41,123 nt of DNA from a virus (taxonomy: Duplodnaviria; Heunggongvirae; Uroviricota; Caudoviricetes), in IMG/VR virus record IMGVR_UViG_2565956719_000013, one strand, 5' to 3'. Each line of letters begins with the position of its first letter. Positions within the stretch are counted from its first letter, which is position 1. Made by a program: the position numbers and the translations under genes. This document shows, piece by piece, positions 3,371 through 35,688 of this stretch. A model generated the notes under the pieces. The model was given only the letters and a program-made list of their open reading frames with translations, was not told the DNA's origin and made no database searches.

Positions 3371-3397
3371 CCCGCAATATTTTGCGGGCTTTTTTTT
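3371..3397 (+). terminator. intrinsic terminator oriented for + strand only
   Basis: stem CCCGCAA (3371-3377) / TTGCGGG (3382-3388), loop TATT, T8 tract 3390-3397 overlapping tailspike stop; no T-tract in the minus orientation. Confidence 0.5.
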
Positions 3398-6300
3398 AAC
3401 GTTCTTCCAGAGACTGAACCCGCTCTTTTATCTTATCCATTTCTCTGCGCTGCCATGCTGCCTCGATATAGAATAAGAGATCAGGTCTGACCCCCCATCT
3501 AGATCCTGCTGGCGTTATTTCAACGCGCTCAATGATGTCTTCTATTACCATCACTGGATTATCATCCTCATCAACAATGATGCTCCCGTCATTATCAGTC
3601 AGCGGCATTTCCCTTTGGCCAGTAATGACGTCATCATATACTGCGGGATAATCGTCATAGCAAAGAAAGGCATAGCGGCATGTTGTGCTTTCTTCTTCCA
3701 TGAGTCCGTGAGAAATAAGAACATCACGAAGTTGCTGCGCGATTACACCATGATGTATCCTCGCCCCTTCTTCCCCCTTTATAGCGACAGCGTTCAGCCA
3801 TTTATAAGCGATATACCTGACGTCACCCCAGGCATCCAGCAATGTTTCGTCAGGAGAGACCGGCTCTGTCTTTAATGTTCCGTCACTGGTAACCACAGGA
3901 TTGGAGCCAAGATAAACTATCGAGAACCTGTTTCCCGGACCACCAAGAGCATTTACATTATCAAGATAAGGTTTAACATCTCCGTTCTCAAAAAGATGTT
4001 CGAGTGCGTTATATACCGCGCGACGTGGAGTACTGCTTCTGGAACCATGCAACGTTATCATTGCACCATCTGCTGAAGACGTTGTTTCACCGCCGCTAAC
4101 GATTAATCTCTGAGCGGTAACATCATCAGACGGTACTTTCTTCGCAATAATGGCGTAATTACCCTCAAGTTTGACTTCCGCGCGAACTTGTCCTGATGTA
4201 CCTGCATGGACAGTCAGTGACTGGACGGCAACATCATCTGTGAAATCAACGGGTACAGGAACCGTCCTCACGCCTGACGTCGACATAAAAGTAGGAAGCG
4301 TTCTGTTAGGAGTGGCTCCGTAGACAAAATCCCTTGAAACAAATTCTTCCTGTTTAATTTTCACCCTGAAACAATACAAATCAGCCGGGTGACCATCGTG
4401 AACATAAGGATATTTTCTGTTGTTATCCCCTATGCTCCATGGGTTTAGAAAGTCTTCCCCACCGAAAATGTAGTACAGCCAGTTGTCTTTGATACAAACT
4501 GAACCAACACCAACCGCAGAGTTAACTATTCCGCCCTGATAAATCTGATCAGTAACATTAACCCACTCTACATTATCCAGACTCCACTCATTGACGTTAA
4601 CTCTGGTCATAAATGTTCTTGGATAATTTCCTGCATAACGGTTATCAGGTTCTCCTCCTTCCCACTCACCAAATGCGCGCTCACTGCCAAAAATAATCAG
4701 CTCATCGCCAACTTTGGCAAAAGGAAGGTTTGAGTGATGAACATTATTTGGGAAGCGAAGAGAATTCCATGATGTACCTAAATCAGAGCTTCTGTGCAAT
4801 GAACTACCGGGTTGAGTACTTAATGTCCCCCTGGTCGTCAGATACAGAATGCCATCATAATATTTTACACATGGCTCAGATGCATTCGCCTCATATTCTG
4901 CAGGTATGCGTCTGCGAACAAAGCTACCAGGAGAACCGAAAGCATCAGAGAAATAGAGTATCCCAAGCTCGCGTGGACCAATATCACCATTATGGTAGCC
5001 AACAGCAAAACTGTTATCGCTAATCGTCGCAAAACTGTGAATCTCAGTAACAGGAGTGCTTCCGTCAACAAAAGAAGGAATAGTTCCAAGACTGGTTTTT
5101 CTCCATGGTGACGAGTGAAATGATGTACCAAAACTCCAGTATCTACCCTCGTTATTCTGATCCACATCCTGGGTATTTTGCGTCGTAACTGTAAAAGTAT
5201 TTTTATCAATAACAGTAGTCACCGTCATATTCCCGGTAACACCTGTAACACCAGAGTTTGAGAAGTTGACAAAATCACCAGCAAATAATCCGTGATCAGT
5301 AATGCGAATATAAGCGACTTGCTGATTTGCTGCTTTCGTTATACCACCATAAACGCGAAGGCTGCGACTCATTGGGCGATCCCACAACTCTGCAACCTGC
5401 AGTTTATTTCCGCTCACGGTCCGCGTCTCAATTACAGCAAAAAGGCGATTTCTGACAACCCCCATACTCATGCAGTGATAGTTAACTGTGGGATAGTTTT
5501 CATGTAAATCTGTAAGCCATTCCGGCGTTGTCCAGGTCTTCCCGTCATCTCCTGAGCGAACCCATGCAACATGGAGGTTATTTACACCATGGCGGTCTCC
5601 AGCCATAAAAGGCGCATAGATGACATTGTCATATACAAACGTTTTATCCTGCGTCCAGGCGTTGTACCACGGTGTATCTGTAATTTTAAATAACTCTCCC
5701 TGGATAAAATCTTCAGAAGCATAAAAAAGAGGCTGGCCCGGTATTCTCTCAAATAAAAAACGAGCATTTTTAAATCGACTGACATCCGGAAGAGTTGATA
5801 CTTTAAAAGTAAGCCCTAATCCGTCAATTTTATAACCTGGAGATGAGGCTTCAAGGCACGCGCTTATTGCAGTGGAATCGTCATTTATACCATCACCAAC
5901 AGCTCCAAAATCTTTGGGGCTAATAGCATCACGCATTTTATCCTGGAACGTTCGGTACACAGCCCCAGAACCATACTGAATAAACCAACCAAAACCACCA
6001 ACAACCCCGGCGATTGCAGCATCGACATAATTACGCATTGAGCGATTATTTACAGCGTCCTGCTCAAATGATGGATCTGCAAGGTTAGAAATTTTGTTTT
6101 GCTTTGCATCGTAATATTTTGCAAGCAAAGATGGTTTCATCAATGCACGTCTGAACCACCCAAAACATTGCTGGATCAGCATCGTCAGGTAGTCAAAGGC
6201 ATCTTCATGCACTTCGGGGAAAAATTTTCCCTGATTGCGAAGGTCTGTCTCCTGCACTACATCAAGCACACGATCTATCGTAATTCGCCATCCAGTAGCA

Positions 6301-6515
6301 AGCGGAGACGGAAGAACCACAGAACCGCCACTATAAGTGCCCGCCCCAGTTACCGTATAACCGGTATCCAGAACCAATTCTGTTACGTTCCCGTTCAGGT
6401 CAGACACCTGAACAACCAGGTCTGATTTTCTGAAAATTCGAAAAGTATACGGAAACGACGTCGTAACGCCGTTACCGGTGTATTCGTTGTGGTCAACTTC
6501 GGTTGAGACCGTCAT
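3396..6515 (-). CDS. tailspike: T7 gp17-like N-terminal anchor, Asp-box domain, C-terminal intramolecular-chaperone-type domain; candidate endosialidase
   Basis: 1039 aa; GGAG RBS; N-terminal pattern resembles T7 tail-fibre N-domain; two Asp-box motifs (SGDDGKTW, SSDLGTSW); C-terminal SDGTLK...IAQQ... region resembles S74-type autocleaving chaperone domains. Confidence 0.85.
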   Translation of the reverse strand: MTVSTEVDHNEYTGNGVTTSFPYTFRIFRKSDLVVQVSDLNGNVTELVLDTGYTVTGAGTYSGGSVVLPSPLATGWRITIDRVLDVVQETDLRNQGKFFPEVHEDAFDYLTMLIQQCFGWFRRALMKPSLLAKYYDAKQNKISNLADPSFEQDAVNNRSMRNYVDAAIAGVVGGFGWFIQYGSGAVYRTFQDKMRDAISPKDFGAVGDGINDDSTAISACLEASSPGYKIDGLGLTFKVSTLPDVSRFKNARFLFERIPGQPLFYASEDFIQGELFKITDTPWYNAWTQDKTFVYDNVIYAPFMAGDRHGVNNLHVAWVRSGDDGKTWTTPEWLTDLHENYPTVNYHCMSMGVVRNRLFAVIETRTVSGNKLQVAELWDRPMSRSLRVYGGITKAANQQVAYIRITDHGLFAGDFVNFSNSGVTGVTGNMTVTTVIDKNTFTVTTQNTQDVDQNNEGRYWSFGTSFHSSPWRKTSLGTIPSFVDGSTPVTEIHSFATISDNSFAVGYHNGDIGPRELGILYFSDAFGSPGSFVRRRIPAEYEANASEPCVKYYDGILYLTTRGTLSTQPGSSLHRSSDLGTSWNSLRFPNNVHHSNLPFAKVGDELIIFGSERAFGEWEGGEPDNRYAGNYPRTFMTRVNVNEWSLDNVEWVNVTDQIYQGGIVNSAVGVGSVCIKDNWLYYIFGGEDFLNPWSIGDNNRKYPYVHDGHPADLYCFRVKIKQEEFVSRDFVYGATPNRTLPTFMSTSGVRTVPVPVDFTDDVAVQSLTVHAGTSGQVRAEVKLEGNYAIIAKKVPSDDVTAQRLIVSGGETTSSADGAMITLHGSRSSTPRRAVYNALEHLFENGDVKPYLDNVNALGGPGNRFSIVYLGSNPVVTSDGTLKTEPVSPDETLLDAWGDVRYIAYKWLNAVAIKGEEGARIHHGVIAQQLRDVLISHGLMEEESTTCRYAFLCYDDYPAVYDDVITGQREMPLTDNDGSIIVDEDDNPVMVIEDIIERVEITPAGSRWGVRPDLLFYIEAAWQRREMDKIKERVQSLEER

Positions 6516-6619: not shown

Positions 6620-6634
6620 TTACCTTTCAGGTAA
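6620..6634. promoter_or_regulatory. operator-like dyad TTACC-N5-GGTAA
   Basis: ATTACCtttcaGGTAAT, perfect dyad between tailspike start (6515) and SOS-box gene. Confidence 0.55.
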
Positions 6635-7014: not shown

Positions 7015-7104
7015 ATTTACATCGCACTCCTCTTGTGCCATAGTAATCGGGCACTGGCAAAATCCAGTGCCGGGATTGGCGTCCCGGGTTACTAAGTGGC
7101 GCAT

Positions 7105-7127
7105 ACCACGCCAGACGTGGTTTTTTT
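7105..7127 (+). terminator. intrinsic terminator/attenuator in antirepressor leader
   Basis: stem ACCACG (7105-7110) / CGTGGT (7116-7121), loop CCAGA, T7 tract to 7127. Confidence 0.55.
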
Positions 7128-7283
7128 ATGCGTTAAGCACAGCTATATCCGAATTATGGTGGGCTGGGCAGGGGTCCGAAAGGACGCCGGTACCACTTAG
7201 GCCGGTACGCCAACCTTGTCCAGTTCACCACCAGTAATTGGCGTTGCGGTGGTGATTAAAATCACTAAGTGGAGATAACCACC

Positions 7284-7994
7284 ATGGCTAATGCTCAAAC
7301 TGCCATCTTCAAATTTGAATCTGTTAACCCTATCCGTTCCATCATTATCGATGGCCAACCATGGTTTGTAGCCCAAGACGTTTGTAGTGCGCTGCGTATC
7401 CAAAACGTCACCCAAGCACTTGAAAAACTGGATGATGATGAAAGGTCTATGTTCAACATAGGGCATGAACATCGTGCAATTTTTGACAGCCGAGTAAAAG
7501 AGATCAACATTATCTCCGAGTCAGGCCTCTACACACTGATCCTCCGCTGCCGCGACGCAGTGACACCAGGCACTATCCCCTACCGCTTTCGTAAATGGGT
7601 TACAGGTGAGGTTCTTCCTCAGATCCGCCGCACCGGAAGTTACATTAAAAACTCGCTCCCGCAGGAAGAACGCATAAAGATGGTTGCCGACCAGGTAGCC
7701 AACGCCACGGCGTCAGCAGTAATGCAGGCGATGAAGATAGAGAACAAAACCTACAGTGCCCCACTGAAGCCCGGCTACCGTAGCCTGATTCATTCGCCGT
7801 CTGGTGTTCTCGGCCTGACGGAGAACTCACTGCTGATGAATCTGCTGAACCAGTTACAGGACGACGGGCACGACGTATCGGGCGCGGCGGCGGAGCTGAC
7901 CACCATGTTCTGCTACATCGTCGGTGTGAGCAAATGCCTGCGTGATATCCAGACCCACGCGGAGTACATCAACGACAAGGCAGGGTTCTTCTGA
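7284..7994 (+). CDS. antirepressor with N-terminal Bro-N domain
   Basis: ATG 7284 with AAGTGGAG RBS; N-terminus FKFESVNPIRSIIIDGQPWFVAQDVCSAL matches Bro-N pattern; C-terminal domain paralogous to 6711..6968 product. Confidence 0.7.
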   Translation: MANAQTAIFKFESVNPIRSIIIDGQPWFVAQDVCSALRIQNVTQALEKLDDDERSMFNIGHEHRAIFDSRVKEINIISESGLYTLILRCRDAVTPGTIPYRFRKWVTGEVLPQIRRTGSYIKNSLPQEERIKMVADQVANATASAVMQAMKIENKTYSAPLKPGYRSLIHSPSGVLGLTENSLLMNLLNQLQDDGHDVSGAAAELTTMFCYIVGVSKCLRDIQTHAEYINDKAGFF

Positions 7995-8065: not shown

Positions 8066-8080
8066 TTACCTCAAGGGTAA
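8066..8080. promoter_or_regulatory. operator-like dyad TTACC-N5-GGTAA
   Basis: ATTACCtcaagGGTAAG, perfect dyad ~60 bp upstream of ATG 8140. Confidence 0.55.
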
Positions 8081-8139: not shown

Positions 8140-8772
8140 ATGAGAACAAATACAACAAGAAAAGCGATGCCATACATTATCCCAGAAGCAGATTTCGATA
8201 GAAAACTGAACATGTCTGAGAAGAACACTAGTCACACCGAAAGCTACTTAGCGAAAGGTGTGGTTGATTTCGTTCTTCCGGGATTCACAACACCTTATGG
8301 TTATCGCCTTGTAAAATCTTGTAATGGCGATCATTACAGAATGATTACTACCAGCGATACTCCAGAAACGGTGTATGCGGTTAAGTTAATCTTTCGGGAA
8401 GATATCGTCGAAGCCAAAAGAACATGTACGCAGATCATGGTATGGCGTACGCCTAATGTTATTCATGACCGTGCTGTTCATGGTTTGCCTCAGATTTTTT
8501 TTCAGTTCTTCCTAGAGCAATATGCGATCGTTGTATCTGATGAGCAACAAACAATCGATGGGAGAAGATTCTGGGAAAGAATGATTTCTTGGGCTATAAA
8601 CACCCCGGGATATAATGTATACGTTTCAGATGGCTCTGAAGAAGATAGACCTCTTAGCTTCATGACATCATGGGATGATTTCTATAGCCAGTGGGCTGAT
8701 TTCTGTTGGGGCAGTGATAAAGATGTGCATACCCACAGACTACTGGTTATAAGCAAAGATAAACTGCATTAA
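8140..8772 (+). CDS. hypothetical protein, 210 aa, orphan accessory gene
   Basis: GGGAGGA RBS; own upstream dyad and downstream terminator; no motif recognised. Confidence 0.65.
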   Translation: MRTNTTRKAMPYIIPEADFDRKLNMSEKNTSHTESYLAKGVVDFVLPGFTTPYGYRLVKSCNGDHYRMITTSDTPETVYAVKLIFREDIVEAKRTCTQIMVWRTPNVIHDRAVHGLPQIFFQFFLEQYAIVVSDEQQTIDGRRFWERMISWAINTPGYNVYVSDGSEEDRPLSFMTSWDDFYSQWADFCWGSDKDVHTHRLLVISKDKLH

Positions 8773-9555: not shown

Positions 9556-12030
9556 TTATTGCGGAGTGACATCCTGAGGTCGCCACCAGTATGTCTGATT
9601 AAACTCTTTCTTCGAACGTTGCTCCATTTTACGCAAATAGCCTGGTGAAAAATACTCCTGCATCTGGTTCAAGATCATATGATCGAGAGCCGCCTTTAAG
9701 TACCAGAGATTCGCACCTGGCATCAAACCTTTCCCCAGCTTCACCAGATCACCACCAGTCTGCTCACTCTTCCCTTCCACAGCATTTAACGGTATGCCCT
9801 GAGCAATCTTCACTACGTCATCAACCAGACCAGCTACCGGGCCAAGCATCGACGCCAGCGCGCCGCTTCCGTACCTAGTGTGATCTGACAATAAAAAGTC
9901 ACCGTAAAGGCCAAGGCCACCACCTTTCAGTAGAGCACCAAGCCAGAATTTTGCGGCACCTTCTCCTGTCATCTCTCGAGGATTACGACCAGACGCAAGG
10001 TCGTTAAGTTGCTGCGACAAAGCGCCAAGAATGGTCGTACTGGCAATAAACGTCGCAATATATGCCGCACGCCCACCAGCAGACGGCATACCCATAGCGC
10101 GTGACCAGTGACGCATAACAACCGAGATAGGGAACGATTTAAACAGGAAAACACGTCTCGTTAATTCACCTTTCCATGTTCCACGCTGAATACCAGAACC
10201 GGTTATCAGTTGCTCACGTGCTCCCGGTGTAATAACAGCCATATCAACTTCTTCAGTTACGGCACCGAGCAGTTTACGCATTGCCTCAAATTTCACTCGT
10301 TCAGGCTCACCAAGATGTTTAACTGCTGAATCAGGGATACGCATAATGCTTTCCGGTGTCAGCATCGTATTATTACCGTTCCCCCAGTCCTCCTGTTGCG
10401 CCAGCTTCCATACGCTCCAGTCTGTGTCAGTAATCCCTTTGCTTTTCAGGATACGAAAATCAGAGTCATCGAGGCTACGAAGGTCTGGTGTCCGTGACAC
10501 TACTTCTCCCAGGCTTCCCATCATGGTTACGCCATAGGCGCGCTTGTGCGCATCTGACCATGCTGTAAGCCCACTGGCACGCATTACGGCCGTTGCCGCC
10601 CAACGAGACACTGACGGCCCCATATTATCCATCGCCCAGCGGTTAACGCTGCCAAGTAGAGATTCCATCGCCAGACCAGCGCGGCGCGCCCGCGCAAGTT
10701 CTGTACGGTTCGTTGGGTCCATAGCTTCAAGCTGGTTGCGGAATAACTGGTTCATTGGAAGGTTGGTAACCTTCGCAGACAGATACATGGTTCCAAGATC
10801 AGAGAACGATGACAGCAACGCGGATCCGAGTCTGCTGGCAACCAGCCAGTTGCGGATATTGTCAGACCATCGCGCGATGTGCGGATTCGCTACAGGCTGT
10901 GTCTTTCCGGAAATAAAGTTGTACAGATTCTCTGTGTTGTTCGCCAGCCGCTCGACTTTACCGGTTTTACTCGGGTTAGCTGTTGCCGTTTCTGCCTTCA
11001 CCTGATCAAGAAGAGAGCGGAAAACATGATCGGGGTTTGGGCCATATGTTTCCACCAGTGCAATATCTTTACTGATACCTTCAAGGTGACCGACCATGAT
11101 TTCCCATAGAGAGCGATCGCCATAAAGTTGCTGATATTGCAGATAGGAATCTGCATCTTTGAAATGTATCTGTCGTGATGCATTACCACGGTTAGCACGT
11201 GCGCCGGAAATTCGCATTCCGGTATCAGTAAGCTTATTCAGCCCACCAGTAGCGATCGTGTTATAAGCCTCTCCAAGAAATGCAGACAACTCGGCATCGT
11301 TCATCAGTTGTCCATCGGCTCGGGTATAATATTTGCGATCCAGCTTACCTATAACATCGCTAACCCATTTATCTTTTGATACCGCCCCAACCTTTTCCAT
11401 AGAATGATGTTGAGGGATCCCCCAGTTTTCGAGATAGCCAATGTCCCCACCAGCATCATTAAACCGGCGGCGCAGCAGCTCTGTAACTTCTCTCCACGCC
11501 TTAGCACCTTTTCTTGCTTTAGCATTGCCAGTATTTTGCCCTCGCATTTCATATACCAGATCACGCACGCCAGCTTCATCTTCAAACAGGCCAAAAAAGC
11601 GAGGATCAACTGCTTCAAATGCCTCCTGCAATTGACTCAATGCATAATCACGAGTGGCTTTTGTTCTGGACTCAACAGAGAGGAAATTCGATTTACCGTC
11701 TGCATTAAAAGCAATAGTACGGTTAAGAGCGCCAAGTTTCCCATCAGCCCCTTGATAGCTATTGATAAATTTATCCAATCTCTGACGTGCGGCTATAGTG
11801 AGGGCCACACGACGTTTCTTTAATGCCGCTTCTCGCTGTAATTCTTCAGATGCCAATTGTGCTGCTCGATATAGCCGCTCTGATTCGGAAAGTTGTCTCC
11901 ACGACATCGGGTCATCACGAGCAATGGAGCGCATATTTCGATAAATGCGGTCTTCAATGTTCTGTATTTCTCGCGCCGTTAACGTGCGCTGCGCCGCCTG
12001 CTGAACCGCTTGTATACATTCCTGTCTCAT
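9556..12030 (-). CDS. large internal virion / ejection protein
   Basis: 824 aa; GAGAGG RBS; position after two other large proteins matching T7 gp15/gp16-like core order; hydrophobic segments near C-terminus. Confidence 0.55.
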   Translation of the reverse strand: MRQECIQAVQQAAQRTLTAREIQNIEDRIYRNMRSIARDDPMSWRQLSESERLYRAAQLASEELQREAALKKRRVALTIAARQRLDKFINSYQGADGKLGALNRTIAFNADGKSNFLSVESRTKATRDYALSQLQEAFEAVDPRFFGLFEDEAGVRDLVYEMRGQNTGNAKARKGAKAWREVTELLRRRFNDAGGDIGYLENWGIPQHHSMEKVGAVSKDKWVSDVIGKLDRKYYTRADGQLMNDAELSAFLGEAYNTIATGGLNKLTDTGMRISGARANRGNASRQIHFKDADSYLQYQQLYGDRSLWEIMVGHLEGISKDIALVETYGPNPDHVFRSLLDQVKAETATANPSKTGKVERLANNTENLYNFISGKTQPVANPHIARWSDNIRNWLVASRLGSALLSSFSDLGTMYLSAKVTNLPMNQLFRNQLEAMDPTNRTELARARRAGLAMESLLGSVNRWAMDNMGPSVSRWAATAVMRASGLTAWSDAHKRAYGVTMMGSLGEVVSRTPDLRSLDDSDFRILKSKGITDTDWSVWKLAQQEDWGNGNNTMLTPESIMRIPDSAVKHLGEPERVKFEAMRKLLGAVTEEVDMAVITPGAREQLITGSGIQRGTWKGELTRRVFLFKSFPISVVMRHWSRAMGMPSAGGRAAYIATFIASTTILGALSQQLNDLASGRNPREMTGEGAAKFWLGALLKGGGLGLYGDFLLSDHTRYGSGALASMLGPVAGLVDDVVKIAQGIPLNAVEGKSEQTGGDLVKLGKGLMPGANLWYLKAALDHMILNQMQEYFSPGYLRKMEQRSKKEFNQTYWWRPQDVTPQ

Positions 12031-12035
12031 TTAAT

Positions 12036-13838
12036 TTAACCTCTCAAGAAACACGCCACAGCGACATCAAACAGGCTGGAATCCTGTATTGCCTGCTCAC
12101 TTTCCATGTTCGCTTCATCCAGTACTTCACGCGCACTGCGCGATTGTGGATTACCATCATCATCCAGCACGGTGATTATCATGTCAGGTGATTCAAGCAG
12201 CGAGTCTTCAGCTATGCGCAGATCAATATCTCCTGCCGGATCTGCCATCATCTTTTGTTCTGCCTGTTGCAATATCTTACCGGGCTCAAAAGGAGCTACT
12301 TCGTCTGGCGTCCTGACCTCTGCTGTTTTATAGAATGAAACAGCCTGAGCATTAAGTTCACTTTCTGCCTGCTGTCTCCGAGCCAGTTCTGCTCGAGCTT
12401 CAAAAAACTGACCGCCAGGCTCGTGCGGTGCCAACGCGTTACGGGAAAATTCCAGGCGTTCTTGTGCCTGCCGGATTCGTTGGTCAATATCGCGAAGTCT
12501 GACCTGTTTATCTGATCGAGCACGAGACAAAGCTTTACCGCTGCCGGTTGGCTCTTCTGCAAGAATTTGTGCGCGCTGTTCAGTGAGATTTTCAATAATT
12601 CGTTGGCTATTAGCGATTTCATACTGGTAAACCTGTCTATCGCCACGCGGCAAAAGCTGCGCGGCCTGTTCTTCAAGCAACCGATTTTCTATAGCGCGCG
12701 CCGTTACTCCATCATCTACAGATGACAGAGCCTCATTAACTGCCTGAGACAGCAGACTCTTACGCCCAGGAATTTCACTGAAAGATGCAGGCTCAACAAT
12801 GCTGGCAACGTCTACAGGTCTCCCTTGGCTAACATCAGACATAGCTTTTCGCAGAGCCTGAATGTGAGAATTGCGCGAAAGCACGTTGATCGGCACGCCG
12901 GGAGAAATATCAATTTCAGCATGATGAGCGGCATTCGCCGCCAGTGCAGCATCGATATCAACTGGTGAAAAATTTGGTGCGTTTGTAGACTCGCCGCGAG
13001 AGTTAATAAATCTGCCGACACCACCAAACGCCACCCCAAGAACAGCATCAATAGCAATTGCCTGTCGATCCAACACATCATACTGGTTAGCCATTTCGCT
13101 ATAGCCACCATCACGAAGTGTTTTTGCAGTAAGCCCACGCTGTGCCATACCGAACGCAATATTTGTACCTGCGGCATAGGCAATATCTGGCGTTGCACGT
13201 ACTGCTGTTGCTGCGGCGCGTCGCACTGAACTCTCACCCGTCCGCGCAAGCTGAGCCGCCACACCTTCCGCCAGCGCACCACCAGCACGTAACCCGAGGC
13301 TCATAGGGATCAGTGTTCCGGCACCAGCAGTAATGCCCTGCACTAATCCCGCTTCCTGCGCCGTCCTGAAATCAACACCCTGTGCTGTCAGCCGTTCAAA
13401 CTCAGAAAAACCCTGTAGCGAAGTTACCGCCGCCGCACCTCCGACAGGACCACCGAGCGTTGTACCGACAACAGCCTGCCCGCCCATATCGAACAACCCA
13501 TAAAGAACCTGCCCGGCGGTTCCGGTTGTCGCGGCATCAGGCGTCAGCCGCTTAACCTGCTGCTCTGCTAGTTTTCTCTGCTCGGCAATGTATGAAACTG
13601 AAGTATCATTGAGCGAGGTGTTTTCGTTAATAAACTGAGCAATCGGGGATACGATTTTATCCATCCCTGCCCATAGCAACTGATCTGGCTTTGCCACCAG
13701 CCCGGAGTACAAACCAGACAATGCCGCTCCTACAGCATTGTCGAAAAAACCAACATCGCTGTTAAAGCCCGCTGGATTTGATGCTGCTTCGTCAAGTTGC
13801 TGATTCTGGTTTACTGGATTAAGGCCAAAGTAACTCAT
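12036..13838 (-). CDS. internal virion protein (Gly/Ala-rich)
   Basis: 600 aa; GGAG RBS; ATGA overlap with upstream gene; Gly/Ala-rich N-terminal half. Confidence 0.5.
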   Translation of the reverse strand: MSYFGLNPVNQNQQLDEAASNPAGFNSDVGFFDNAVGAALSGLYSGLVAKPDQLLWAGMDKIVSPIAQFINENTSLNDTSVSYIAEQRKLAEQQVKRLTPDAATTGTAGQVLYGLFDMGGQAVVGTTLGGPVGGAAAVTSLQGFSEFERLTAQGVDFRTAQEAGLVQGITAGAGTLIPMSLGLRAGGALAEGVAAQLARTGESSVRRAAATAVRATPDIAYAAGTNIAFGMAQRGLTAKTLRDGGYSEMANQYDVLDRQAIAIDAVLGVAFGGVGRFINSRGESTNAPNFSPVDIDAALAANAAHHAEIDISPGVPINVLSRNSHIQALRKAMSDVSQGRPVDVASIVEPASFSEIPGRKSLLSQAVNEALSSVDDGVTARAIENRLLEEQAAQLLPRGDRQVYQYEIANSQRIIENLTEQRAQILAEEPTGSGKALSRARSDKQVRLRDIDQRIRQAQERLEFSRNALAPHEPGGQFFEARAELARRQQAESELNAQAVSFYKTAEVRTPDEVAPFEPGKILQQAEQKMMADPAGDIDLRIAEDSLLESPDMIITVLDDDGNPQSRSAREVLDEANMESEQAIQDSSLFDVAVACFLRG

Positions 13839-23340: not shown

Positions 23341-23637
23341 TCACTCCTGTTCACTGGCCTCTTTGGCCATCTTCAAATACTGTTCAGGGCAATGCGCCAT
23401 AACGCGCTGAAACAGTTCAAGCGCCAGATTGCGTTGCCCCTCATTAAATGCCATTGCCATAGCGTCCATCGGTGAGATAGCGGAAAACACACGGCCTTTC
23501 TCCAGCACAGACCAGACAACGCGACGCCCCTGTTCACTGCTCATGACAAAGCGAATGTCATCAATTTCACGCTGCTCCATGTCACGTTGCTTACGGGCGT
23601 TTTCTTCTTTCAGTTGATCGTCTTCGTAATCTGTCAT
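23341..23637 (-). CDS. hypothetical protein
   Basis: 98 aa; ATGA overlap with portal stop. Confidence 0.45.
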   Translation of the reverse strand: MTDYEDDQLKEENARKQRDMEQREIDDIRFVMSSEQGRRVVWSVLEKGRVFSAISPMDAMAMAFNEGQRNLALELFQRVMAHCPEQYLKMAKEASEQE

Positions 23638-25313
23638 TGTGATTGCCCACCCTGACCACTAACTGCATTCGCCATAGCTGACAAAACACTCGGATCCGAA
23701 GTTTTAGCTTCGCTTAGCGTCTTGGCGCCCTGTGCCGCCGCCATCCCCATCGCCATCATTTGTTGCTGCTGTTGCTGCTGTGCCCGTTGCTGGCGAGCCT
23801 GCTCAACCTGTTCCTGCGGAACAATGACGGTTGGAGACACTCCGGACATATCAGCGAATGCATCGATCGCCTGATCAACGTTGAGTTTGTCGAGAGCTTC
23901 TGGTTTCGCTTGCGCAAGTTGACCAATGAAGTTAACCGTGGACGCCAGACTGGACAGGCCGATAGACTTCTGCGCCTGAGCCATGACGGAAATGTATTCG
24001 ACCTTCAGGGGCATACCTTCCATCACGTCTGGCGGTGGCGGCAGCATGTTTTTACGCACCATCATCGAGAAAGAGCGGTCAATGAGAGGATTAAGACATT
24101 CGTCGTTCAGACGCTCCAGAACCGGCCCCAACATCAGAAGTTTTTCTTCTTTCATTTCGATCACCGCTTCAACAGGCATCGAGCGGGTATTGATGTTCTG
24201 CAACATCATGAACAGATCGACAAAGTAGGCGCTGTTAATGATTTGACGAGTGTCCTGAATGTCTGCCACCAAATCTGCTGTACTGGGGTTAACCAGATAA
24301 GCAGGCCTGAAACCATCCTGACCAGTAATCTGATCGATATACGTGATGTCGCCAGGAAGAAGGGAGGCACGCTGATTCTTGAGGGAAGTCGGAGCAACCA
24401 TCGGCGGATTGGTGGCTTTATCAATCAACTGCGACTTGCGCTTCTGGAGAAGCTGCAATGCCTTAACAGGTCCAAGCGCCAGCATACCCGGGCATGATGA
24501 TCCATAAACATCTTCGCCGTTAACTTCCCAGCGCGGAGCCATAATTGGAAACTCATCGAATCCGGACTCACGCAACAACTTGTCGTTATCGCCACCAACC
24601 TCGTAATAAACCGATTTGAATGGCTTGTTCTTGCTATCCAGCTTCGATGTATCGCGGTCAATGTTCGGGTAAACCGAATGCATCACTTCAATCCACTTCT
24701 CGTAGGTTCCGCTTTCCCACATGCTTTTTACGGATTCGCTGACGTTATTTAGCCCGAACTCCTGAACAAGCTGACGAACAGTCATAGAGAACTTGCGAAA
24801 ACAGGTGTCCACACTGCCACGAGGTGAGTTAGCCAGGTAGTAACTGCCTATCGGGAATGGCATTGTGCGAATGATGTCCTCGTCATCCTCCAGCACTGCC
24901 ATTGCACCAGTGCTGTATGTGCCGAGGCTTCCGTATAACTGCGGCAGCGACTGATAGAGATTCGACTTATTGAACATATCGTTCATGCGGTTCTGCACCG
25001 CCTCAAGCCACAACTTAACAGGGCCATAATCCATCATTTCAGGATCTGGCGTAGCCAGGCGAAACCACGGACGCGCGGGGCTTGTGATGCCTGACATCAT
25101 GCCGCTGGCGAGAGTGCGCGCCGCCATAGTCCCGGTCGAATCAATAATGCGTGTATTGCGTCGATCGTTACGGTTGGCCTCAGAAGTCAGAAAGCGGGAA
25201 CCACGCGGGTTGATGTAATCACTCAACTCGCGCCAGTGCGGCTCGAACGACTGACGCTCGCTTTCAAGTTGTGCGAACTGTTTGTTCAATCGCTCTTTAG
25301 TTGTTTCCGCCAT
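23634..25313 (-). CDS. portal (head-tail connector), T7 gp8-like
   Basis: 559 aa; GGAG RBS; C-terminal QQQQQMMAMGMAAAQGAKT resembles T7 gp8 C-terminus; follows terminase. Confidence 0.8.
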   Translation of the reverse strand: MAETTKERLNKQFAQLESERQSFEPHWRELSDYINPRGSRFLTSEANRNDRRNTRIIDSTGTMAARTLASGMMSGITSPARPWFRLATPDPEMMDYGPVKLWLEAVQNRMNDMFNKSNLYQSLPQLYGSLGTYSTGAMAVLEDDEDIIRTMPFPIGSYYLANSPRGSVDTCFRKFSMTVRQLVQEFGLNNVSESVKSMWESGTYEKWIEVMHSVYPNIDRDTSKLDSKNKPFKSVYYEVGGDNDKLLRESGFDEFPIMAPRWEVNGEDVYGSSCPGMLALGPVKALQLLQKRKSQLIDKATNPPMVAPTSLKNQRASLLPGDITYIDQITGQDGFRPAYLVNPSTADLVADIQDTRQIINSAYFVDLFMMLQNINTRSMPVEAVIEMKEEKLLMLGPVLERLNDECLNPLIDRSFSMMVRKNMLPPPPDVMEGMPLKVEYISVMAQAQKSIGLSSLASTVNFIGQLAQAKPEALDKLNVDQAIDAFADMSGVSPTVIVPQEQVEQARQQRAQQQQQQQMMAMGMAAAQGAKTLSEAKTSDPSVLSAMANAVSGQGGQSQ

Positions 25314-25327
25314 TTCAATGACTCCGG

Positions 25328-25534
25328 TTACTGACCAAGCAGCGTTTTACCGCTGGTATTAGCGGTTGATGTGTCACCCTGAGAACCGGTAAGCAGCGTA
25401 GAACTACGACCAGCAGCAGCGCGACGGCGACGAGTTTCTTCGTCGCGGGCATCAACAACGGCGGCATCCTGCTCCTGTGGTGCTGCCTGAACTTCTGGTG
25501 TTGCAGGCACTGACGGTGAGCTACCCATGCACAT
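25328..25534 (-). CDS. small hypothetical protein
   Basis: ATG 25534 with GGAG RBS in a 14-nt initiation region almost identical to the portal one (CGGAGTCATTGA(A/T)ATG). Confidence 0.4.
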   Translation of the reverse strand: MCMGSSPSVPATPEVQAAPQEQDAAVVDARDEETRRRRAAAGRSSTLLTGSQGDTSTANTSGKTLLGQ

Positions 25535-25624
25535 ATCAATGACTCCGTACGCAATTAAATTATTACCAATTTAACCACATATGATTTATTTATCGTAGAT
25601 AGTTGACATTTAACGCACGAATTA

Positions 25625-25639
25625 TTACCTTTCAGGTAA
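25625..25639. promoter_or_regulatory. operator-like dyad TTACC-N5-GGTAA
   Basis: ATTACCtttcaGGTAAG, ~90 bp upstream of the portal-operon first ORF. Confidence 0.55.
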
Positions 25640-25961
25640 GCAAATGGTTCATTCCGGTTATTAACCTGACTGGCTTGTCGTTAAATTGAACAGGTGGAGT
25701 GAGCTTTTATTTTGAGCAGTACGGCGTATGGCACATGCGCCGATAGCGGTCTGGATACGTTTAAGGGGCACCCTCCCTTGCTCGGGCAAACGAACCAGGT
25801 AGCCGGAATGTGCAAGTCGAGCGGTTTTATTCCGCGCACGGGGATTCACCATCCCGGCGATTCGGTGTGACGCCTCGGAAGAGACGAGGGTACAACGATG
25901 AGAGCATTTATGGAGCCGCGACAAAGTGTGGTGCCTTAACAGGCTAAGTGCTCTCAGCGTT

Positions 25962-26038
25962 GTGGCATTAGCTCAGTCGGACAGAGCAACCGCCTTCTAA
26001 GCGGTTGGTCGCAGGTTCGAATCCTGCATGCCACGCCA
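25962..26038 (+). tRNA. tRNA-Arg (anticodon UCU)
   Basis: 77 nt; acceptor stem GTGGCAT/ATGCCAC, anticodon stem ACCGC/GCGGT with loop CTTCTAA, T-arm GCAGG-TTCGAAT-CCTGC, discriminator G, CCA encoded. Confidence 0.85.
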
Positions 26039-26081
26039 GAATCACGCCTAAGGACCGTGATGCCAGAAGTTCCAGGTGCTT

Positions 26082-26123
26082 GGCGGTGATGGTTTCCCTT
26101 GAAGGACTATCACCGCCCTTTTT
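26082..26123 (+). terminator. intrinsic terminator after tRNA
   Basis: GGCGGTGAT (26082-26090) / ATCACCGCC (26109-26117) stem, T5 at 26119-26123. Confidence 0.7.
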
Positions 26124-26241
26124 ACAGCAGGACGCCATTGCGATGACTTCATGCTGTAAACCAGTACAGCCACGGAAGGCATAACTCATTGCTTCCAGTT
26201 CGCCCGGTTCGCAGGGCATTTTTTTAAGGTGAGATTAGACT

Positions 26242-26613
26242 ATGAGTGAAAAAGACATTGAATCTGAAATTCAGGCTAAAGGTTTAGCCGCGCCGCGCGT
26301 TACGCCAGACCATATCGAGAGCATTATTGCTCAGGAGGCATATTTCACAGCAGAAGATGGTGCCTTTGGCGTAGCCATAAAAGCGAAACATACTGGCGGA
26401 GAGGTAAACTACCAGCCGCACGAATCACTTTCTCTGCTGACGTTCTGCGTCCTGGTGCTGCGCAACGGCTTCACCGTCACCGGAGAGAGCGCCTGTGCAA
26501 GCCCGGAAAACTTTGATGCAGAAATTGGTCGGAAGATTGCCCGACAGAATGCTGTAAACAAAATCTGGATGCTTGAAGGTTACTTGCTGAAGCAGAAGTT
26601 AAGCGAGCAATAA
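26242..26613 (+). CDS. Gp49-like small phage protein (N4 Gp49 / Sf6 gp66 family, from memory)
   Basis: AAGGTGAG RBS; 123 aa; C-terminal pattern FDAEIGRKIARQNAVNKIWMLEGYLL recalled for this family. Confidence 0.45.
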   Translation: MSEKDIESEIQAKGLAAPRVTPDHIESIIAQEAYFTAEDGAFGVAIKAKHTGGEVNYQPHESLSLLTFCVLVLRNGFTVTGESACASPENFDAEIGRKIARQNAVNKIWMLEGYLLKQKLSEQ

Positions 26614-26617
26614 CACC

Positions 26618-26629
26618 GTGACATATCAC
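26618..26629. repeat. near-palindrome GTGACATATCAC (copy 3, one mismatch)
   Basis: 5 bp after Gp49-like stop and 4 bp before terminator hairpin. Confidence 0.8.
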
Positions 26630-26633
26630 AAAC

Positions 26634-26660
26634 AGCCAGCCTATGAGCTGGCTTTGTTTT
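26634..26660. terminator. terminator between convergent Gp49-like gene and large terminase
   Basis: AGCCAGC (26634-26640) / GCTGGCT (26647-26653), loop CTATGA, then TTTGTTTT. Confidence 0.55.
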
Positions 26661-26703
26661 ATCCTCATCAGAGGATATCAACAACATTATCCCCTCAAGC
26701 GGA

Positions 26704-28179
26704 TTAAGCATAGGGATCGTAATCTGTAATGGCCCTTCCCTGCTGGCTTTGCTGTCCTGGTATATTTATGCGTTTCGAGACCGGGAAAGCAAACGTCAGC
26801 AGTAGCGCATCGCCTTTACCCGGCGAACGCCCAAGCCGCTCCTTGATATCTTCCTTCGGTTCGATAACGATTTTACCGTCCACTCGAACTTTGTACTCTG
26901 CCGCCGACAGGTCGTCCGCTGTTTCCTGGTCATCCAGCATGCCGCCCAGCCTCAGCCATGTCTTGCATGAGTTGAACATCTCCCCACGCTTGTTGAGCAT
27001 CTGCGGGTCAGTAGACGCGCCACCGAACGGAACAAGTTGCCATGTACGACCCCAGCCGTCACCGATTGACTTCAAACCGGTTCCGTAACCGAAGTCGATG
27101 AACACCGCGTCAGCCTGATACTGGTCTTCAAAGTCAGCGATACGCTTCGCCATAATCAGATCGTCGGTAGTCTTGTTGCCAGTCCACAGCACCTTACTGT
27201 GTAGCCCCTGCCGCAGGTATATCACCGCGTCATCAACGCCTGAATATGCCGGGTCAACACCGATTATCACCGGAGCATGTGCCACCTGCGCAGCGGTTAC
27301 CACCCGTTTCATTGCCTCGTCAGTAAGACCGGTAGGGATAAACTGCAATTCAGATGCATCAGGGAATATGCCACGCACACGGATTTTAACGAAGTCGCTA
27401 TCTTCCCCGTAGTCATCAACCCATTTCTGCAACTGCTGTTTGTTGGTGCCTTCCACCGTCCTGCTGTCAATCTGCGCAGTTTTCCAGCGGTGTTTGTATT
27501 TGCGGAAACATTCACGGAAACGCCCGGTGTTACGTGTAGGGTTTCCGAAAGCCACCCAGATAATCTCAGTGTCTTCGTCCGTTAGCGCACCCTCGGCAAC
27601 TTCCCACACCAGATCCGCAATGTTCGACGCTTCATCAAATACCACGATGATGCGTTTACGCTCGTTGTGTAGTCCGGCGAATGCCTCAGTGTTGTGCTCA
27701 GACCAGGGGATTGCGTCAGCTCGCCACCGCTTGTCGTGCCCAGGGTCATTGCTGTACATCGCGGTAGCGGTACAGGTAAACCAGTCTTTCGTGATAGCAA
27801 GGTTTGACCACTTGATAATTTCCGGCCAGGTCTTCGTTCGTAGCTGGTTGTCGGTGTTGGCGGTCACCACGACCTTACAATCCTCGCAAGTGGACATGCC
27901 CCAGTTGATCAGCATTGAGATGAATGCGGATTTACCAATACCGTGACCAGAAGCACGTGCCAGCATAAGCGGCTGATATCGCGTCTCTGGATTCTGCAGG
28001 TGATCACGTATCTCTCGGAACGCATCAGCCTGCCACTGACGTGGGCCGGTGGCATGTGCCAGTTCAGTCCCCTCTTCCCCCCATGGGAACGCATAGAGGG
28101 CATAGCCAAGCGGATCGTGAGTGAACCCTGCAATATCCTCGATTAACTGCTCTTCAGGAGATAACGCTGTATCTGTCAC
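26704..28179 (-). CDS. terminase large subunit
   Basis: 491 aa; Walker A-like ARASGHGIGKS and Walker B-like IIVVFDEAS; ATGA overlap with small subunit. Confidence 0.85.
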   Translation of the reverse strand: MTDTALSPEEQLIEDIAGFTHDPLGYALYAFPWGEEGTELAHATGPRQWQADAFREIRDHLQNPETRYQPLMLARASGHGIGKSAFISMLINWGMSTCEDCKVVVTANTDNQLRTKTWPEIIKWSNLAITKDWFTCTATAMYSNDPGHDKRWRADAIPWSEHNTEAFAGLHNERKRIIVVFDEASNIADLVWEVAEGALTDEDTEIIWVAFGNPTRNTGRFRECFRKYKHRWKTAQIDSRTVEGTNKQQLQKWVDDYGEDSDFVKIRVRGIFPDASELQFIPTGLTDEAMKRVVTAAQVAHAPVIIGVDPAYSGVDDAVIYLRQGLHSKVLWTGNKTTDDLIMAKRIADFEDQYQADAVFIDFGYGTGLKSIGDGWGRTWQLVPFGGASTDPQMLNKRGEMFNSCKTWLRLGGMLDDQETADDLSAAEYKVRVDGKIVIEPKEDIKERLGRSPGKGDALLLTFAFPVSKRINIPGQQSQQGRAITDYDPYA

Positions 28180-28775
28180 TGATTGCCATCCTGACGTTCT
28201 TTCAGTCTCTTCCTGGCTGCCGCTATGCGATCAGCAATTGTCACATTCACATTAACATCCAGGCGTTCTTTGAATGCGTTGACGTCGACGTGCTTACCAA
28301 TCAGTTCGAGGTTCTTCACCTTGTCAGGCCATTTAATTTTTTTGAGGATGCCAACCAGCTCTTTCTCGTCTCCACGGCCTTCGAACATGTCGGCCAGTTC
28401 GAAACCTGTCAGGTACTGCCGCCAGACCTTAGGCCATTCCGAGACCGGCTTGATGCTCATATCGTCGTTGAGAATGTCAATCACGTCCATCTGGTCGATC
28501 TCCACCAGGCGCATGAGAACGTAATCAGCACTGACGCGCATTCGTTTGTTGCGCTCCTCCATCAACTCGGCAATCCGTTTTTGAATGCGTTCATCGCGCA
28601 TCATGACACTGGCTTTAACTGCCGCTGTATTTGGGGAGAATCCTGCGTTAATCGCTGCCTGAGTCTGGTTTTCAGGCGTTTTGATGTATGACTGGCAATA
28701 AGCCTCCTGCATTGCTGTTAGTGGCTTAAATTGCGTTGATTTGCGTTTATAGGTTTTAGGTTCAGCAGGCATCAT
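28176..28775 (-). CDS. terminase small subunit
   Basis: start moved to ATGATG 28775-28770 (MMPAEPK...); immediately upstream of large terminase. Confidence 0.65.
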   Translation of the reverse strand: MMPAEPKTYKRKSTQFKPLTAMQEAYCQSYIKTPENQTQAAINAGFSPNTAAVKASVMMRDERIQKRIAELMEERNKRMRVSADYVLMRLVEIDQMDVIDILNDDMSIKPVSEWPKVWRQYLTGFELADMFEGRGDEKELVGILKKIKWPDKVKNLELIGKHVDVNAFKERLDVNVNVTIADRIAAARKRLKERQDGNQ

Positions 28776-28782
28776 AACCACC

Positions 28783-28814
28783 GTGGTAATAGTTACCGTT
28801 GTGGTAATAGTACC
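28783..28814. repeat. two direct copies of GTGGTAATAGT(T)ACC upstream of terS
   Basis: 28783-28797 and 28801-28814; each is a GGTAA-N3/4-TACC inverted arrangement. Confidence 0.8.
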
Positions 28815-28818
28815 ATGC

Positions 28819-28844
28819 AAAATAAAGCCGCCATAGTTGGCGGC
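28819..28844 (-). terminator. intrinsic terminator immediately upstream of terS
   Basis: GCCGCC (28827-28832) / GGCGGC (28839-28844), loop ATAGTT; minus-strand T-tract UUUAUUUU (28826-28819). Confidence 0.6.
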
Positions 28845-28885
28845 AGTATTCAAAACCCATCAAATTCATCATGCATAATCTACTC

Positions 28886-34815: not shown

Positions 34816-34882
34816 AGCTATTGCCTGATATTTATTTCAGATAATAAATATTCACCCATAAGGTAACAAAAATCAAGGATAG

Positions 34883-35626: not shown

Positions 35627-35673
35627 TTTTTTTAACTCATATCTATTGACATCAAACCAAATACGCATAATTA

Positions 35674-35688
35674 TTACCTCAACGGTAA
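35674..35688. promoter_or_regulatory. operator-like dyad TTACC-N5-GGTAA at early rightward promoter
   Basis: ATTACCtcaacGGTAAC; TTGACA at 35646-35651 upstream; ~20 bp before ATG 35708. Confidence 0.55.

Follow-up and report, generated by a model that had tools for sequence, protein, structure and literature searches.

The interval 25603-26653 of the viral record IMGVR_UViG_2565956719_000013 (41,123 nucleotides; this whole stretch is referred to below as the window) is quite probably an accessory unit of a temperate podophage of the phiV10 type, conserved and divergently transcribed, rather than a recent antisense insertion, and its most interesting content is a structured RNA (25719-25961), which an earlier note on this DNA did not list. 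On the + strand, the parts of the unit follow each other in the order promoter/operator, leader, structured RNA, transfer RNA (tRNA), terminators T1 and T2, ribosome-binding site and protein gene (called the cargo here; in the window, gp49), palindrome, and terminator T3. The earlier note described a + strand tRNA-Arg(UCU), a strong terminator, a Gp49-like gene and a second terminator, placed on the opposite strand between the large terminase (TerL) gene and the portal operon; all these elements are present and the block lies where it had been placed. Besides the structured RNA, T2, the recurrence of the palindrome in the window and the membership of Gp49 in the Acb4 family had been overlooked. 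The features of the unit are as follows:

25535-25640, no strand assigned: divergent control region between the gp3-portal operon (- strand) and the accessory unit (+ strand), based on conservation
25603-25631, + strand: putative sigma-70 promoter of the unit (TTGACA, 17 nucleotides, TACCTT), with a weak -10
25625-25639, no strand assigned: operator-like perfect palindrome TTACCTTTCAGGTAA, with the pattern TTACC-N5-GGTAA
25640-25718, + strand: 5' leader, partly conserved within Uetakevirus (GTCGTTAAAT...GGTGGAGTG; alignment)
25719-25896, + strand: core of the structured RNA (covariance model, single match in the window, 142 bits, E 5e-42)
25892-25963, + strand: closing helix P5 of the RNA (RNAalifold, several compensatory pairs)
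25962-26038, + strand: tRNA-Arg, anticodon tct, CCA encoded (ARAGORN; Rfam RF00005, 73.3 bits, gathering score 29)
26082-26117, + strand only: terminator T1, a 14-bp stem followed by CUUUUUAC (terminator scan, -22.8 kcal/mol)
26202-26225, + strand: T2, terminator-like hairpin GCCC...GGGC (26202-26217) followed by U7, -8.3 kcal/mol, directly 5' of the ribosome-binding site of the cargo
26226-26232, + strand: ribosome-binding site AAGGTGA, common to different cargo open reading frames (ORFs) in the alignment of relatives
26242-26613, + strand: gp49, PF13876 (Phage_gp49_66), E 2.3e-35, 121.4 bits against a cut-off of 27, positions 1-82 of 82
26617-26629, no strand assigned: right cargo boundary CGTGACATATCAC (in relatives, the perfect palindrome GTGACATGTCAC), conserved immediately 3' of the stop codon in different cargos
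26634-26653, both strands: bidirectional terminator T3 (terminator scan, -13.5 and -15.4 kcal/mol)

The window is a Uetakevirus (phiV10/epsilon15-like) prophage, since positions 25300-26900 show 97% identity to Escherichia phage phiV10 and the whole of this stretch was found in more than 200 complete Escherichia coli genomes, where the Prokaryotic Genome Annotation Pipeline gives the order portal protein, hypothetical protein, tRNA-Arg, Gp49 family protein, and terminase. The same positions are 100% identical to two E. coli phage fragments.

Structure and Conservation of the RNA

Positions 25719-25961 encode a covariation-supported structured RNA matching no Rfam family. Its core consists of hairpin P1, helix P2 enclosing a variable arm, the invariant GGUAGCCGGAAUGUGCAAG, helices P3/P3b, a pseudoknot CACC:GGUG, and hairpin P4 with the loop GAAGAGA. 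In the closing helix P5, ACAACGAUGAGAGCA (25892-25906) pairs with UGCUCUCAGCGUUGU (25949-25963) around a variable insert, the last two pairs borrowing G1 and U2 of the tRNA, and compensated P5 variants are seen in the alignments of relatives. The pseudoknotted RNA is about 245 nucleotides long, with a 3' edge abutting the start of the tRNA; since P5 ends exactly there, cleavage by RNase P would create the 3' end of the RNA. The alignments show the invariant blocks AUGGCACAUG, AGCGGUC, GGUAGCCGGAAUGUGCAAG, UCACCAUC..GGCGAU.CGGUGUGAC, and GGAAGAG, separated by variable hairpins in which the stem changes are compensated; these blocks and compensatory stems are common to Uetakevirus, P1, lambdoid, and Lastavirus phages. 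RNAalifold predicted 41 pairs, 15 of them with compensatory changes. The written-out structure (seven helices, including the pseudoknot) was tested on 36 distinct sequences: 98.3% of the cells are paired, a share that falls to 30-45% if the 3' partners are shifted by 1-3 columns, and double changes occur at 11 pairs (73 cells), a level of covariation matched by none of the 500 shuffles. The fold is specific to the + strand, since many of its G-U pairs would become A-C mismatches on the other strand.

It is very improbable that 25719-25961 is conserved as a site acting at the DNA level or as a small protein gene. Hypothetical ORFs are annotated over the region in mEp460 (gp37), mEp390 (gp36), and Tyrion (gp54), and a - strand frame is free of stops in 27 of the 36 sequences, but no frame is open in all of them, their lengths fall into all three mod-3 classes, the substitutions show no three-nucleotide codon periodicity, and the compensatory changes and G-U pairs are specific to the + strand. 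The coding potential of the region was rejected.

Rfam 15 gave nothing for 25640-25961 either at the gathering threshold or at E<=10, only the tRNA passing across 25500-26700, and the records leave the 427-nucleotide gap between gp3 and the tRNA unannotated. In the open-access literature no description of the RNA was found, although it may have been described under another name: literature string searches for its invariant boxes gave nothing relevant, it is not covered in the Minerva preprint, the "50 bacterial genomes" non-coding RNA paper or the Pas small RNA preprint, and the vB_EcoP_ZX5 paper only counts one tRNA.

T-arm-like hairpins (GGTTCGATTCC, CTGGTTCAATTCCAG) were observed in the P5 variable insert of some variants of the RNA (loci L003, 3540-3650; L101; L105). 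They could be tRNA remnants or T-loop modules.

Distribution and Genomic Context of the RNA

BLAST matches to positions 25721-25883 were obtained at about 80% identity in P1, P7, D6, SJ46, and RCS47, in lambdoid phages (mEp460, cdtI, mEp390, and Stx2c phages), in Klebsiella phages and in a phage listed under Stenotrophomonas. The RNA is present in 1840 of the 5426 complete E. coli genomes, the features under the match being always "none", and the exact 19-mer occurs in viral contigs at 120 loci at least, which form 45 clusters at 90% identity. The covariance model confirmed 22 loci of the genome scan and gave 26 matches in all, counting the window and loci L190, L202, and L213. These matches all belong to Enterobacterales, apart from one metagenome-assembled genome labelled Bacillota, which is probably mis-binned. 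An Acidovorax match from the genome scan, to which the model gives 11 bits, was rejected as a chance occurrence.

Upstream ORFs were identified for 122 fetched viral loci carrying the RNA. At 60 of these, the upstream ORF encodes a CI/LexA-like repressor and lies on the same strand as the RNA, while the context is that of Uetakevirus at 35 and that of P1 at about 20. About 40% of the fetched copies adjoin a tRNA, and these are all in Uetakevirus or P1 contexts, so that a universal RNA-tRNA linkage was rejected. In P1 itself (NC_005856, 71018-71204; L004, 2996-3182), the RNA (131 bits) lies ahead of ban in the unannotated gap between trnI (tRNA-Ile2) and this gene, and starts about 15 nucleotides after tRNA-Ile2.

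Co-transcription of the RNA with cI, in a rex-like lysogenic position, was rejected because a terminator or a promoter separates the two: a terminator in mEp460 and, in mEp390, a TTGACA-18-TACATT promoter flanked by operator-like repeats. Most of the 58 distinct spacers between a same-strand upstream ORF (mostly a repressor gene) and the RNA hold a good sigma-70-like promoter, usually 4-137 nucleotides before the RNA (for example, TTGACA-16-CATAAT at 50 nucleotides and TTGACC-17-GATACT at 47); in L038, L118, and SopranoGao this distance is only 4-5 nucleotides. The lambdoid RNA therefore appears to be the first element transcribed from the leftward early promoter, i.e., to occupy the PL position, which is taken by nutL in lambda and by putL in HK022 (location of put from PMC9378689).

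Constant Head and Exchangeable Cargo

A total of 80 viral contigs with a TerL at least 98% identical to that of the window were fetched, and the gap between terL and gp3 was analyzed in the 77 where it is complete. The earlier note took the block for an inserted cassette, which this comparison does not support. The tRNA-Arg(tct) is present in 76 of the 77 close relatives and the RNA motif was found by exact match in 75 of them; the covariance model also detects the RNA in L202 and L213, which lack the exact motif, and in L190, which has no detected tRNA. The protein gene varies: the slot is occupied by a Gp49 of 112-126 residues, by proteins of 140 (phrog_4846), 115 (phrog_3163), 113 (phrog_27507) or 99 residues, by combinations with a 246-residue ORF, or by an 11-codon stub alone, all the cargos belonging to PHROGs families of unknown function.

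The cargo lies between fixed flanks. To its left, T2, U7, and AAGGTGA are followed by the ATG, and this arrangement precedes the Gp49 variants as well as cargos of 140, 113, and 64 residues; on the right, the palindrome CGTGACATGTCAC is followed by T3. Every cargo lies behind T1 and T2, and there is no room for a promoter between T2 and the ribosome-binding site.

Beyond the close relatives, SPN1S/SPN9TCW and the Klebsiella phage BUCT711 keep the RNA and the tRNA with other cargos, whereas Tyrion and PAT1 keep the RNA and T2 without the tRNA. Epsilon15 (L006, 2811-2976) has Gp49 without the tRNA, and its RNA is reduced to a 74-nucleotide remnant (38.8 bits). The epsilon15 junction is what would remain of an SPN1S-like arrangement after loss of the DNA between two TTCCCTTGATGCT repeats; in SPN9TCW, these repeats are seen in the RNA (first variable arm) and in the loop of T1. 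The epsilon15 state would accordingly be a secondary deletion between short repeats. Since the RNA occurs across the genus, the tRNA in 76 of the 77 relatives, and the epsilon15 loss looks like a deletion, the slot and its RNA content are ancestral to the genus, only the protein cargo being exchangeable. Absence from collinear relatives, which is one mark of a moron, was found for the protein cargo only and not for the RNA or the tRNA. In order of constancy, the RNA ranks first and the tRNA second, the protein gene being the exchangeable part.

Control Region and Operator-Like Palindrome

The control region 25535-25640 is nearly invariant in the window, epsilon15, SPN9TCW, and Klebsiella BUCT711, the hosts of which are E. 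coli, Salmonella, and Klebsiella. Within it are found two ATTATTACC boxes (25559 and 25621), the -35 element TTGACA and the operator-like palindrome; with up to one mismatch, ATTATTACC has 23 occurrences against 7 expected, and repressor and IHF sites are annotated in the equivalent region of the epsilon15 record. In the Uetakevirus alignment, TTGACA (25603-25608) and the ATTACCTTT box are both conserved and the spacer sequence between them varies, as expected for a promoter. TTGACA lies about 115 nucleotides 5' of the structured RNA, and the layout of TTGACA followed by the palindrome recurs at 35650-35688 in the window.

The "restart module" that the earlier note placed at 25625 does coincide with a sequence feature, which is this perfect TTACC-N5-GGTAA palindrome, a pattern that is found without mismatch at 12 sites of the window. 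If up to two mismatches are allowed, 38 sites were counted against 11.9 expected, a number reached in none of the 100 shuffles. The other sites (no strand assigned, from the pattern search) are located as follows:

34900, with near-matches at 34852 and 34515: cro/cI intergenic region
35612 and 35674: after the repressor gene
28793, with a near-match at 28775: before terS
6620 and 7000: before the isrK/C4 immunity RNAs
8066, 32507, and 32569: further sites

The palindrome is probably the operator of the prophage repressor, and its presence at likely promoters suggests operators scattered over the genome, as in the case of the P1 C1 repressor. Repression in the lysogen would then extend to the leftward portal promoter, to the + strand unit or to both. 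Since the promoter of the unit overlaps a palindrome that recurs in the immunity region, expression of the unit early in the lytic cycle or after induction is suggested rather than expression in the lysogen, so that the lysogenic expression proposed in the earlier note, which regarded the block as a moron, is not borne out by the arrangement of the sites. The vB_EcoP_ZX5 paper reports that over-expression of the repressor shuts down the lysis genes.

Terminators T1, T2, and T3

T1 follows the tRNA in the relatives too. The common form of T2 in these relatives is GCCCGG-UUCG-CCGGGC (-12.7 kcal/mol), and T2 is also found in Tyrion (GCCCGG/CCGGGC) and PAT1 (GCCCAC/GTGGGC), with covarying stems. 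T3, which the phiV10 record annotates as a rho-independent terminator on the terL strand, would end both the + strand unit and the leftward terS-terL transcript, and if it does, the portal operon needs a start of its own in the control region. The idea that the terminators block leftward read-through from the terminase genes thus holds for the bidirectional T3; it does not hold for T1 and T2, which, as + strand terminators only, cannot act on leftward transcription.

The T2 of the window carries a C-to-A change at 26213 (GCAGGGC, as compared with GCCGGGC in most relatives), which lowers its stability from -12.7 to -8.3 kcal/mol. This weakened T2 might raise the expression of Gp49 in this prophage.

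Gp49 as a Member of the Acb4 Family

The family and the fold of Gp49 are those of Acb4. A phmmer search of the PDB sequences gave a single hit, 9e4w_A "anti-CBASS 4 (Acb4)" (E 0.0068, residues 67-108; CBASS, cyclic oligonucleotide-based antiphage signaling system), with the common motif T.CV...N.F.V.G.S....ENF..EIGR. In the AlphaFold2 model of Gp49 (mean pLDDT, i.e., predicted local distance difference test score, 81.9), the fold of SPO1 Acb4 is present, with a helical N-terminus, a three-stranded sheet and long C-terminal helices. The top 13 Foldseek matches to the model in the PDB are all 9e4w chains (probability 1.00, target-normalised template modelling score 0.60-0.67, 20-22% identity), the probability of the following hits being at most 0.72. 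SPO1 Acb4 belongs to PF13876, a family in which 1,331 homologs have been analyzed; Acb4 is a tetrameric sponge for 3'3'-cyclic GMP-AMP (cGAMP), 8 of 8 homologs bound cGAMP, and the homologs from phages of Gram-negative bacteria also bound 3'3'-cAA and not cGG (Chang et al., bioRxiv 10.1101/2024.12.30.630793). Gp49 is therefore predicted to be a tetrameric sponge for CBASS cyclic dinucleotides. The pocket of SPO1 Acb4 comprises K36, F48, E49, V56, Y57, F62, N63, I66, T70, and K81; in the phmmer alignment, F48, F62, and I66 are kept as F77, F91, and I95 of Gp49, so that the stacking core appears to be conserved and the base-specific contacts do not.

The alignment of 39 Gp49 homologs, all carrying PF13876, shows conserved segments (1-40 and 64-123) flanking a hypervariable insert at about 41-63 (window 26364-26430). 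In nearly identical phages (TerL at least 98% identical; L155-L234), Gp49 differs almost only in this insert of 12-25 residues, which suggests diversifying selection or a cassette-like exchange within the gene. The PADLOC defence models gave no hits for Gp49 or the alternative cargos, and the 263-residue cargo of BUCT711 gave weak PADLOC hits only, to coiled-coil (SMC-like) models.

tRNA-Arg(UCU) and Codon Usage

The tRNA, which is the only one detected by ARAGORN in the window, looks like a working tRNA-Arg(UCU): the anticodon loop CUUCUAA and the T arm match those of E. coli K-12 argU exactly, the D arm does so nearly, and where the acceptor and anticodon stems differ, the substitutions are compensatory. 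The candidate role of an anticodon-loop escape variant was rejected, since the loop is the same as in argU.

Codons were counted in non-overlapping window ORFs chosen by a script (12,567 codons). AGA occurs at 7.1 per 1000 (89 codons) and AGG at 4.9 per 1000 (61 codons). In E. coli K-12, the usage of AGA is roughly 2 per 1000 and that of AGG roughly 1.2 per 1000, so that the AGA rate of the window is about three times that of K-12. The AGA codons are concentrated in the following genes:

3396-6515, - strand: endosialidase tailspike, 17 of the 89 AGA codons of the window
8140-8772, + strand: ORF without a Pfam match, 10 AGA in 210 codons (48 per 1000)
9556-13838: two large ORFs, 15 AGA codons together
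DnaT-like gene: 6 AGA codons

Codon supplementation by the phage tRNA is plausible on these counts, but not for the neighbouring genes; the decoding of rare AGA codons put forward in the earlier note agrees with the overall enrichment and not with the head genes surrounding the unit, which are free of AGA. The ORF at 8140-8772, which lies just downstream of the operator palindrome at 8066, may be a horizontally acquired accessory gene dependent on the phage tRNA.

In the phiV10 RefSeq record (NC_007804.2), the tRNA itself is not annotated, and a hypothetical coding sequence, PhiV10p04 (3669-3920, corresponding to window 25968-26219, - strand), runs antisense over tRNA-Arg and T1; this coding sequence is probably spurious. 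A megablast search with the query also matched 65 Synechococcus phage records, presumably via the tRNA-Arg(UCU) sequence alone.

Proposed Mechanism and Alternative Explanations

Once repression is lifted, transcription from the promoter at 25603 would yield the RNA and then the tRNA, and cleavage by RNase P at the 5' end of the tRNA would release both. The tRNA would support AGA-rich phage genes such as that encoding the tailspike. Most transcripts would stop at T1/T2, the read-through fraction expressing the Acb4 sponge, which would sequester CBASS cyclic dinucleotides and protect the phage, while T3 would insulate the unit and close terS-terL transcription. The RNA might be a cis-acting leader making the RNA polymerase resistant to terminators, so that T1 and T2 can be read through, which would give it the function of the HK022 put RNA, to which it is unrelated in sequence and size. 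This role is favored because the cargos lie behind two terminators without a promoter of their own and the RNA is the sole upstream element that is universally retained, and it is put forward tentatively, as somewhat less than evenly probable. The broader proposal that the RNA represents an undescribed class of phage leaders, present in lambdoid PL, P1, and Uetakevirus contexts and giving read-through without a phage protein, is possible but rather doubtful.

Several observations weigh against this scheme. A consensus promoter scan of 25200-27000 found none, the promoter predicted at 25603 going unreported because its weak -10 matches at only 3 of 6 positions. The site equivalent to the 25625 palindrome is labelled "repressor" in the epsilon15 record, which is an annotator's label, and what the palindrome controls could be the leftward portal promoter instead. 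Passage through T1 and T2 could be a matter of simple leakiness. In P1, 2.3 kb separate the RNA from Pban, and no terminator was detected 3' of the RNA; in mEp390 and mEp460, too, the search downstream of the RNA gave no + strand terminator, and antitermination is thus not needed in every context in which the RNA occurs. Homology to put RNA was rejected, since neither BLAST nor the covariance model gave a hit in HK022. The head genes at 19.8-28.2 kb, including those encoding TerL and the portal protein, have zero AGA codons. Lastly, SPO1 Acb4 contacts are replaced in Gp49 (E49 by T78, Y57 by A86, T70 by I99, and K36 by L65).

The structured RNA might rather be a trans-acting product, a decoy, sponge or regulator that is transcribed first from an early promoter and whose 3' end is trimmed by RNase P. 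It could act on a sensor or nuclease of host defence, on an RNA-binding protein, or on the host RNA polymerase, and the unit would then be a counter-defence island. A complex, pseudoknotted and deeply conserved fold with a 19-nucleotide invariant single-stranded block is more reminiscent of a protein- or ligand-binding RNA than of a simple leader, and the RNA shares the unit in the window with a protein of the anti-defence family Acb4. The promoters lying 4-5 nucleotides before the RNA in L038, L118, and SopranoGao are placed as in a stand-alone RNA gene; in P1 the RNA is internal in the ban operon and distant from its promoter, and the lambdoid copies examined have no terminators downstream. 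The latter fact also counts the other way, since these copies then lack a terminator defining a discrete 3' end, and for Uetakevirus a role in cis is suggested by the T2 gate, which is conserved ahead of the cargo. On balance, a trans-acting product is the main rival and only a little less probable than the cis-acting leader. It is improbable that the tRNA-Arg(UCU) serves mainly as a counter-defence spare, taking the place of host tRNA-Arg after cleavage by a colicin D-like toxin or an anticodon nuclease. Rescue from tRNA-targeting defences is a known function of phage tRNAs, this one occurs in one unit with an anti-CBASS gene, and its acceptor and anticodon stems differ from those of argU. 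Its loop, however, is identical to that of argU, so that a loop-recognising nuclease would cleave the phage tRNA too; the AGA enrichment already provides a simpler reason for the tRNA, and Tyrion, PAT1, and epsilon15 manage without it.

The explanation given in the earlier note, that of a moron recently inserted antisense in the late operon, expressed in the prophage and decoding rare AGA, likewise has a small chance of being correct. The opposite orientation, the flanking terminators, the enrichment in AGA and AGG in the window ORFs and the true exchangeability of the protein cargo among nearly identical phages are all in line with it. The RNA and the tRNA are, however, nearly universal in the close relatives and common to the Salmonella and Klebsiella members of the genus, the epsilon15 state looks like a secondary deletion, the promoter of the unit carries a palindrome also found at the immunity region, and the adjacent late head genes are those in which AGA is absent. 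The conserved, divergently transcribed unit is therefore the explanation retained here.

Other Features of the Window

The genes next to the unit and to the portal operon are the following:

26704-28179, - strand: TerL (ORF list/Pfam)
28176-28853, - strand: TerS (PF03592)
25328-25534, - strand: gp3-like (ORF list/Pfam)
23634-25313, - strand: portal (PF12236)

The tailspike encoded at 3396-6515 (- strand) is a full endosialidase (PF12217, PF12219, PF12195, and PF12218, with a Peptidase_S74 chaperone), i.e., a K1-capsule-type tailspike on a phiV10-like prophage. At 7051-7235 (+ strand), Rfam detects an isrK-like RNA (67.7 bits) and a C4 antisense RNA (66 bits), which are followed by an ORF with a Bro-N domain (7269-7994, + strand); this region is an antirepressor control module of the P1/P7 immI type, and the two operator palindromes at 6620 and 7000 lie just 5' of it.

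Relation to Known Systems and Significance

The tRNA and Gp49 were already annotated in relatives, and the function of Gp49 has been published at the family level. SPO1 Acb4 (PDB 9e4w; PF13876, "N4 Gp49 / Sf6 gene 66") is likewise a small phage accessory protein, with a full-profile hidden Markov model match, the same fold, and an F/ENF..EIGR core conserved in Gp49; it differs in showing only about 20% identity and in having 96 residues as against 123 here, Gp49 having the hypervariable insert in addition. The putL/putR elements of HK022 also lie downstream of an early repressor-controlled promoter, and the Uetakevirus RNA lies upstream of intrinsic terminators. The put RNAs act in cis in processive antitermination and consist of about 70 nucleotides forming two hairpins (PMC9378689), whereas the present RNA has about 245 nucleotides, five helices and a pseudoknot.

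As in the case of the rare-codon tRNAs of other phages (argN/argO/ileZ of Stx phages and the P1 tRNAs), an extra tRNA is carried here by a temperate coliphage over-using AGA, and in P1 the tRNA (Ile2) is also paired with the same structured RNA; the difference is that in the unit a structured RNA is joined head-to-tail to the tRNA, which is followed by a gate of two terminators. GOLLD and ROOL are likewise unexplained, highly structured phage RNAs often adjoining tRNA genes, but they are about 500-800 nucleotides long, come from other bacterial phyla and have Rfam families of their own, whereas the present RNA has no Rfam match. The lambdoid morons resemble the unit in being independent, with terminators, between two late gene blocks and in having a cargo that varies among relatives. 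Here, in contrast, the RNA and tRNA are constant and ancestral, the cargo has no promoter and lies behind terminators, and the promoter of the unit looks repressor-controlled.

The design of the unit is that of a constant RNA/tRNA head and a terminator gate, followed by a slot where small genes, for anti-defence or other functions, replace one another while the flanks stay the same. The occurrence of Acb4 variants differing mainly in one insert makes it a natural system for studying sponge diversification. An unannotated RNA, which lies at the start of early transcripts, is carried by 1840 of the 5426 complete E. coli genomes, P1, and many lambdoid prophages. If this RNA does control elongation or counter host defence, some of the best-studied phages would contain a new regulatory element, and if it antiterminates, the RNA would be a second, structurally unrelated RNA route to processive antitermination, present in about one third of the complete E. 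coli genomes.

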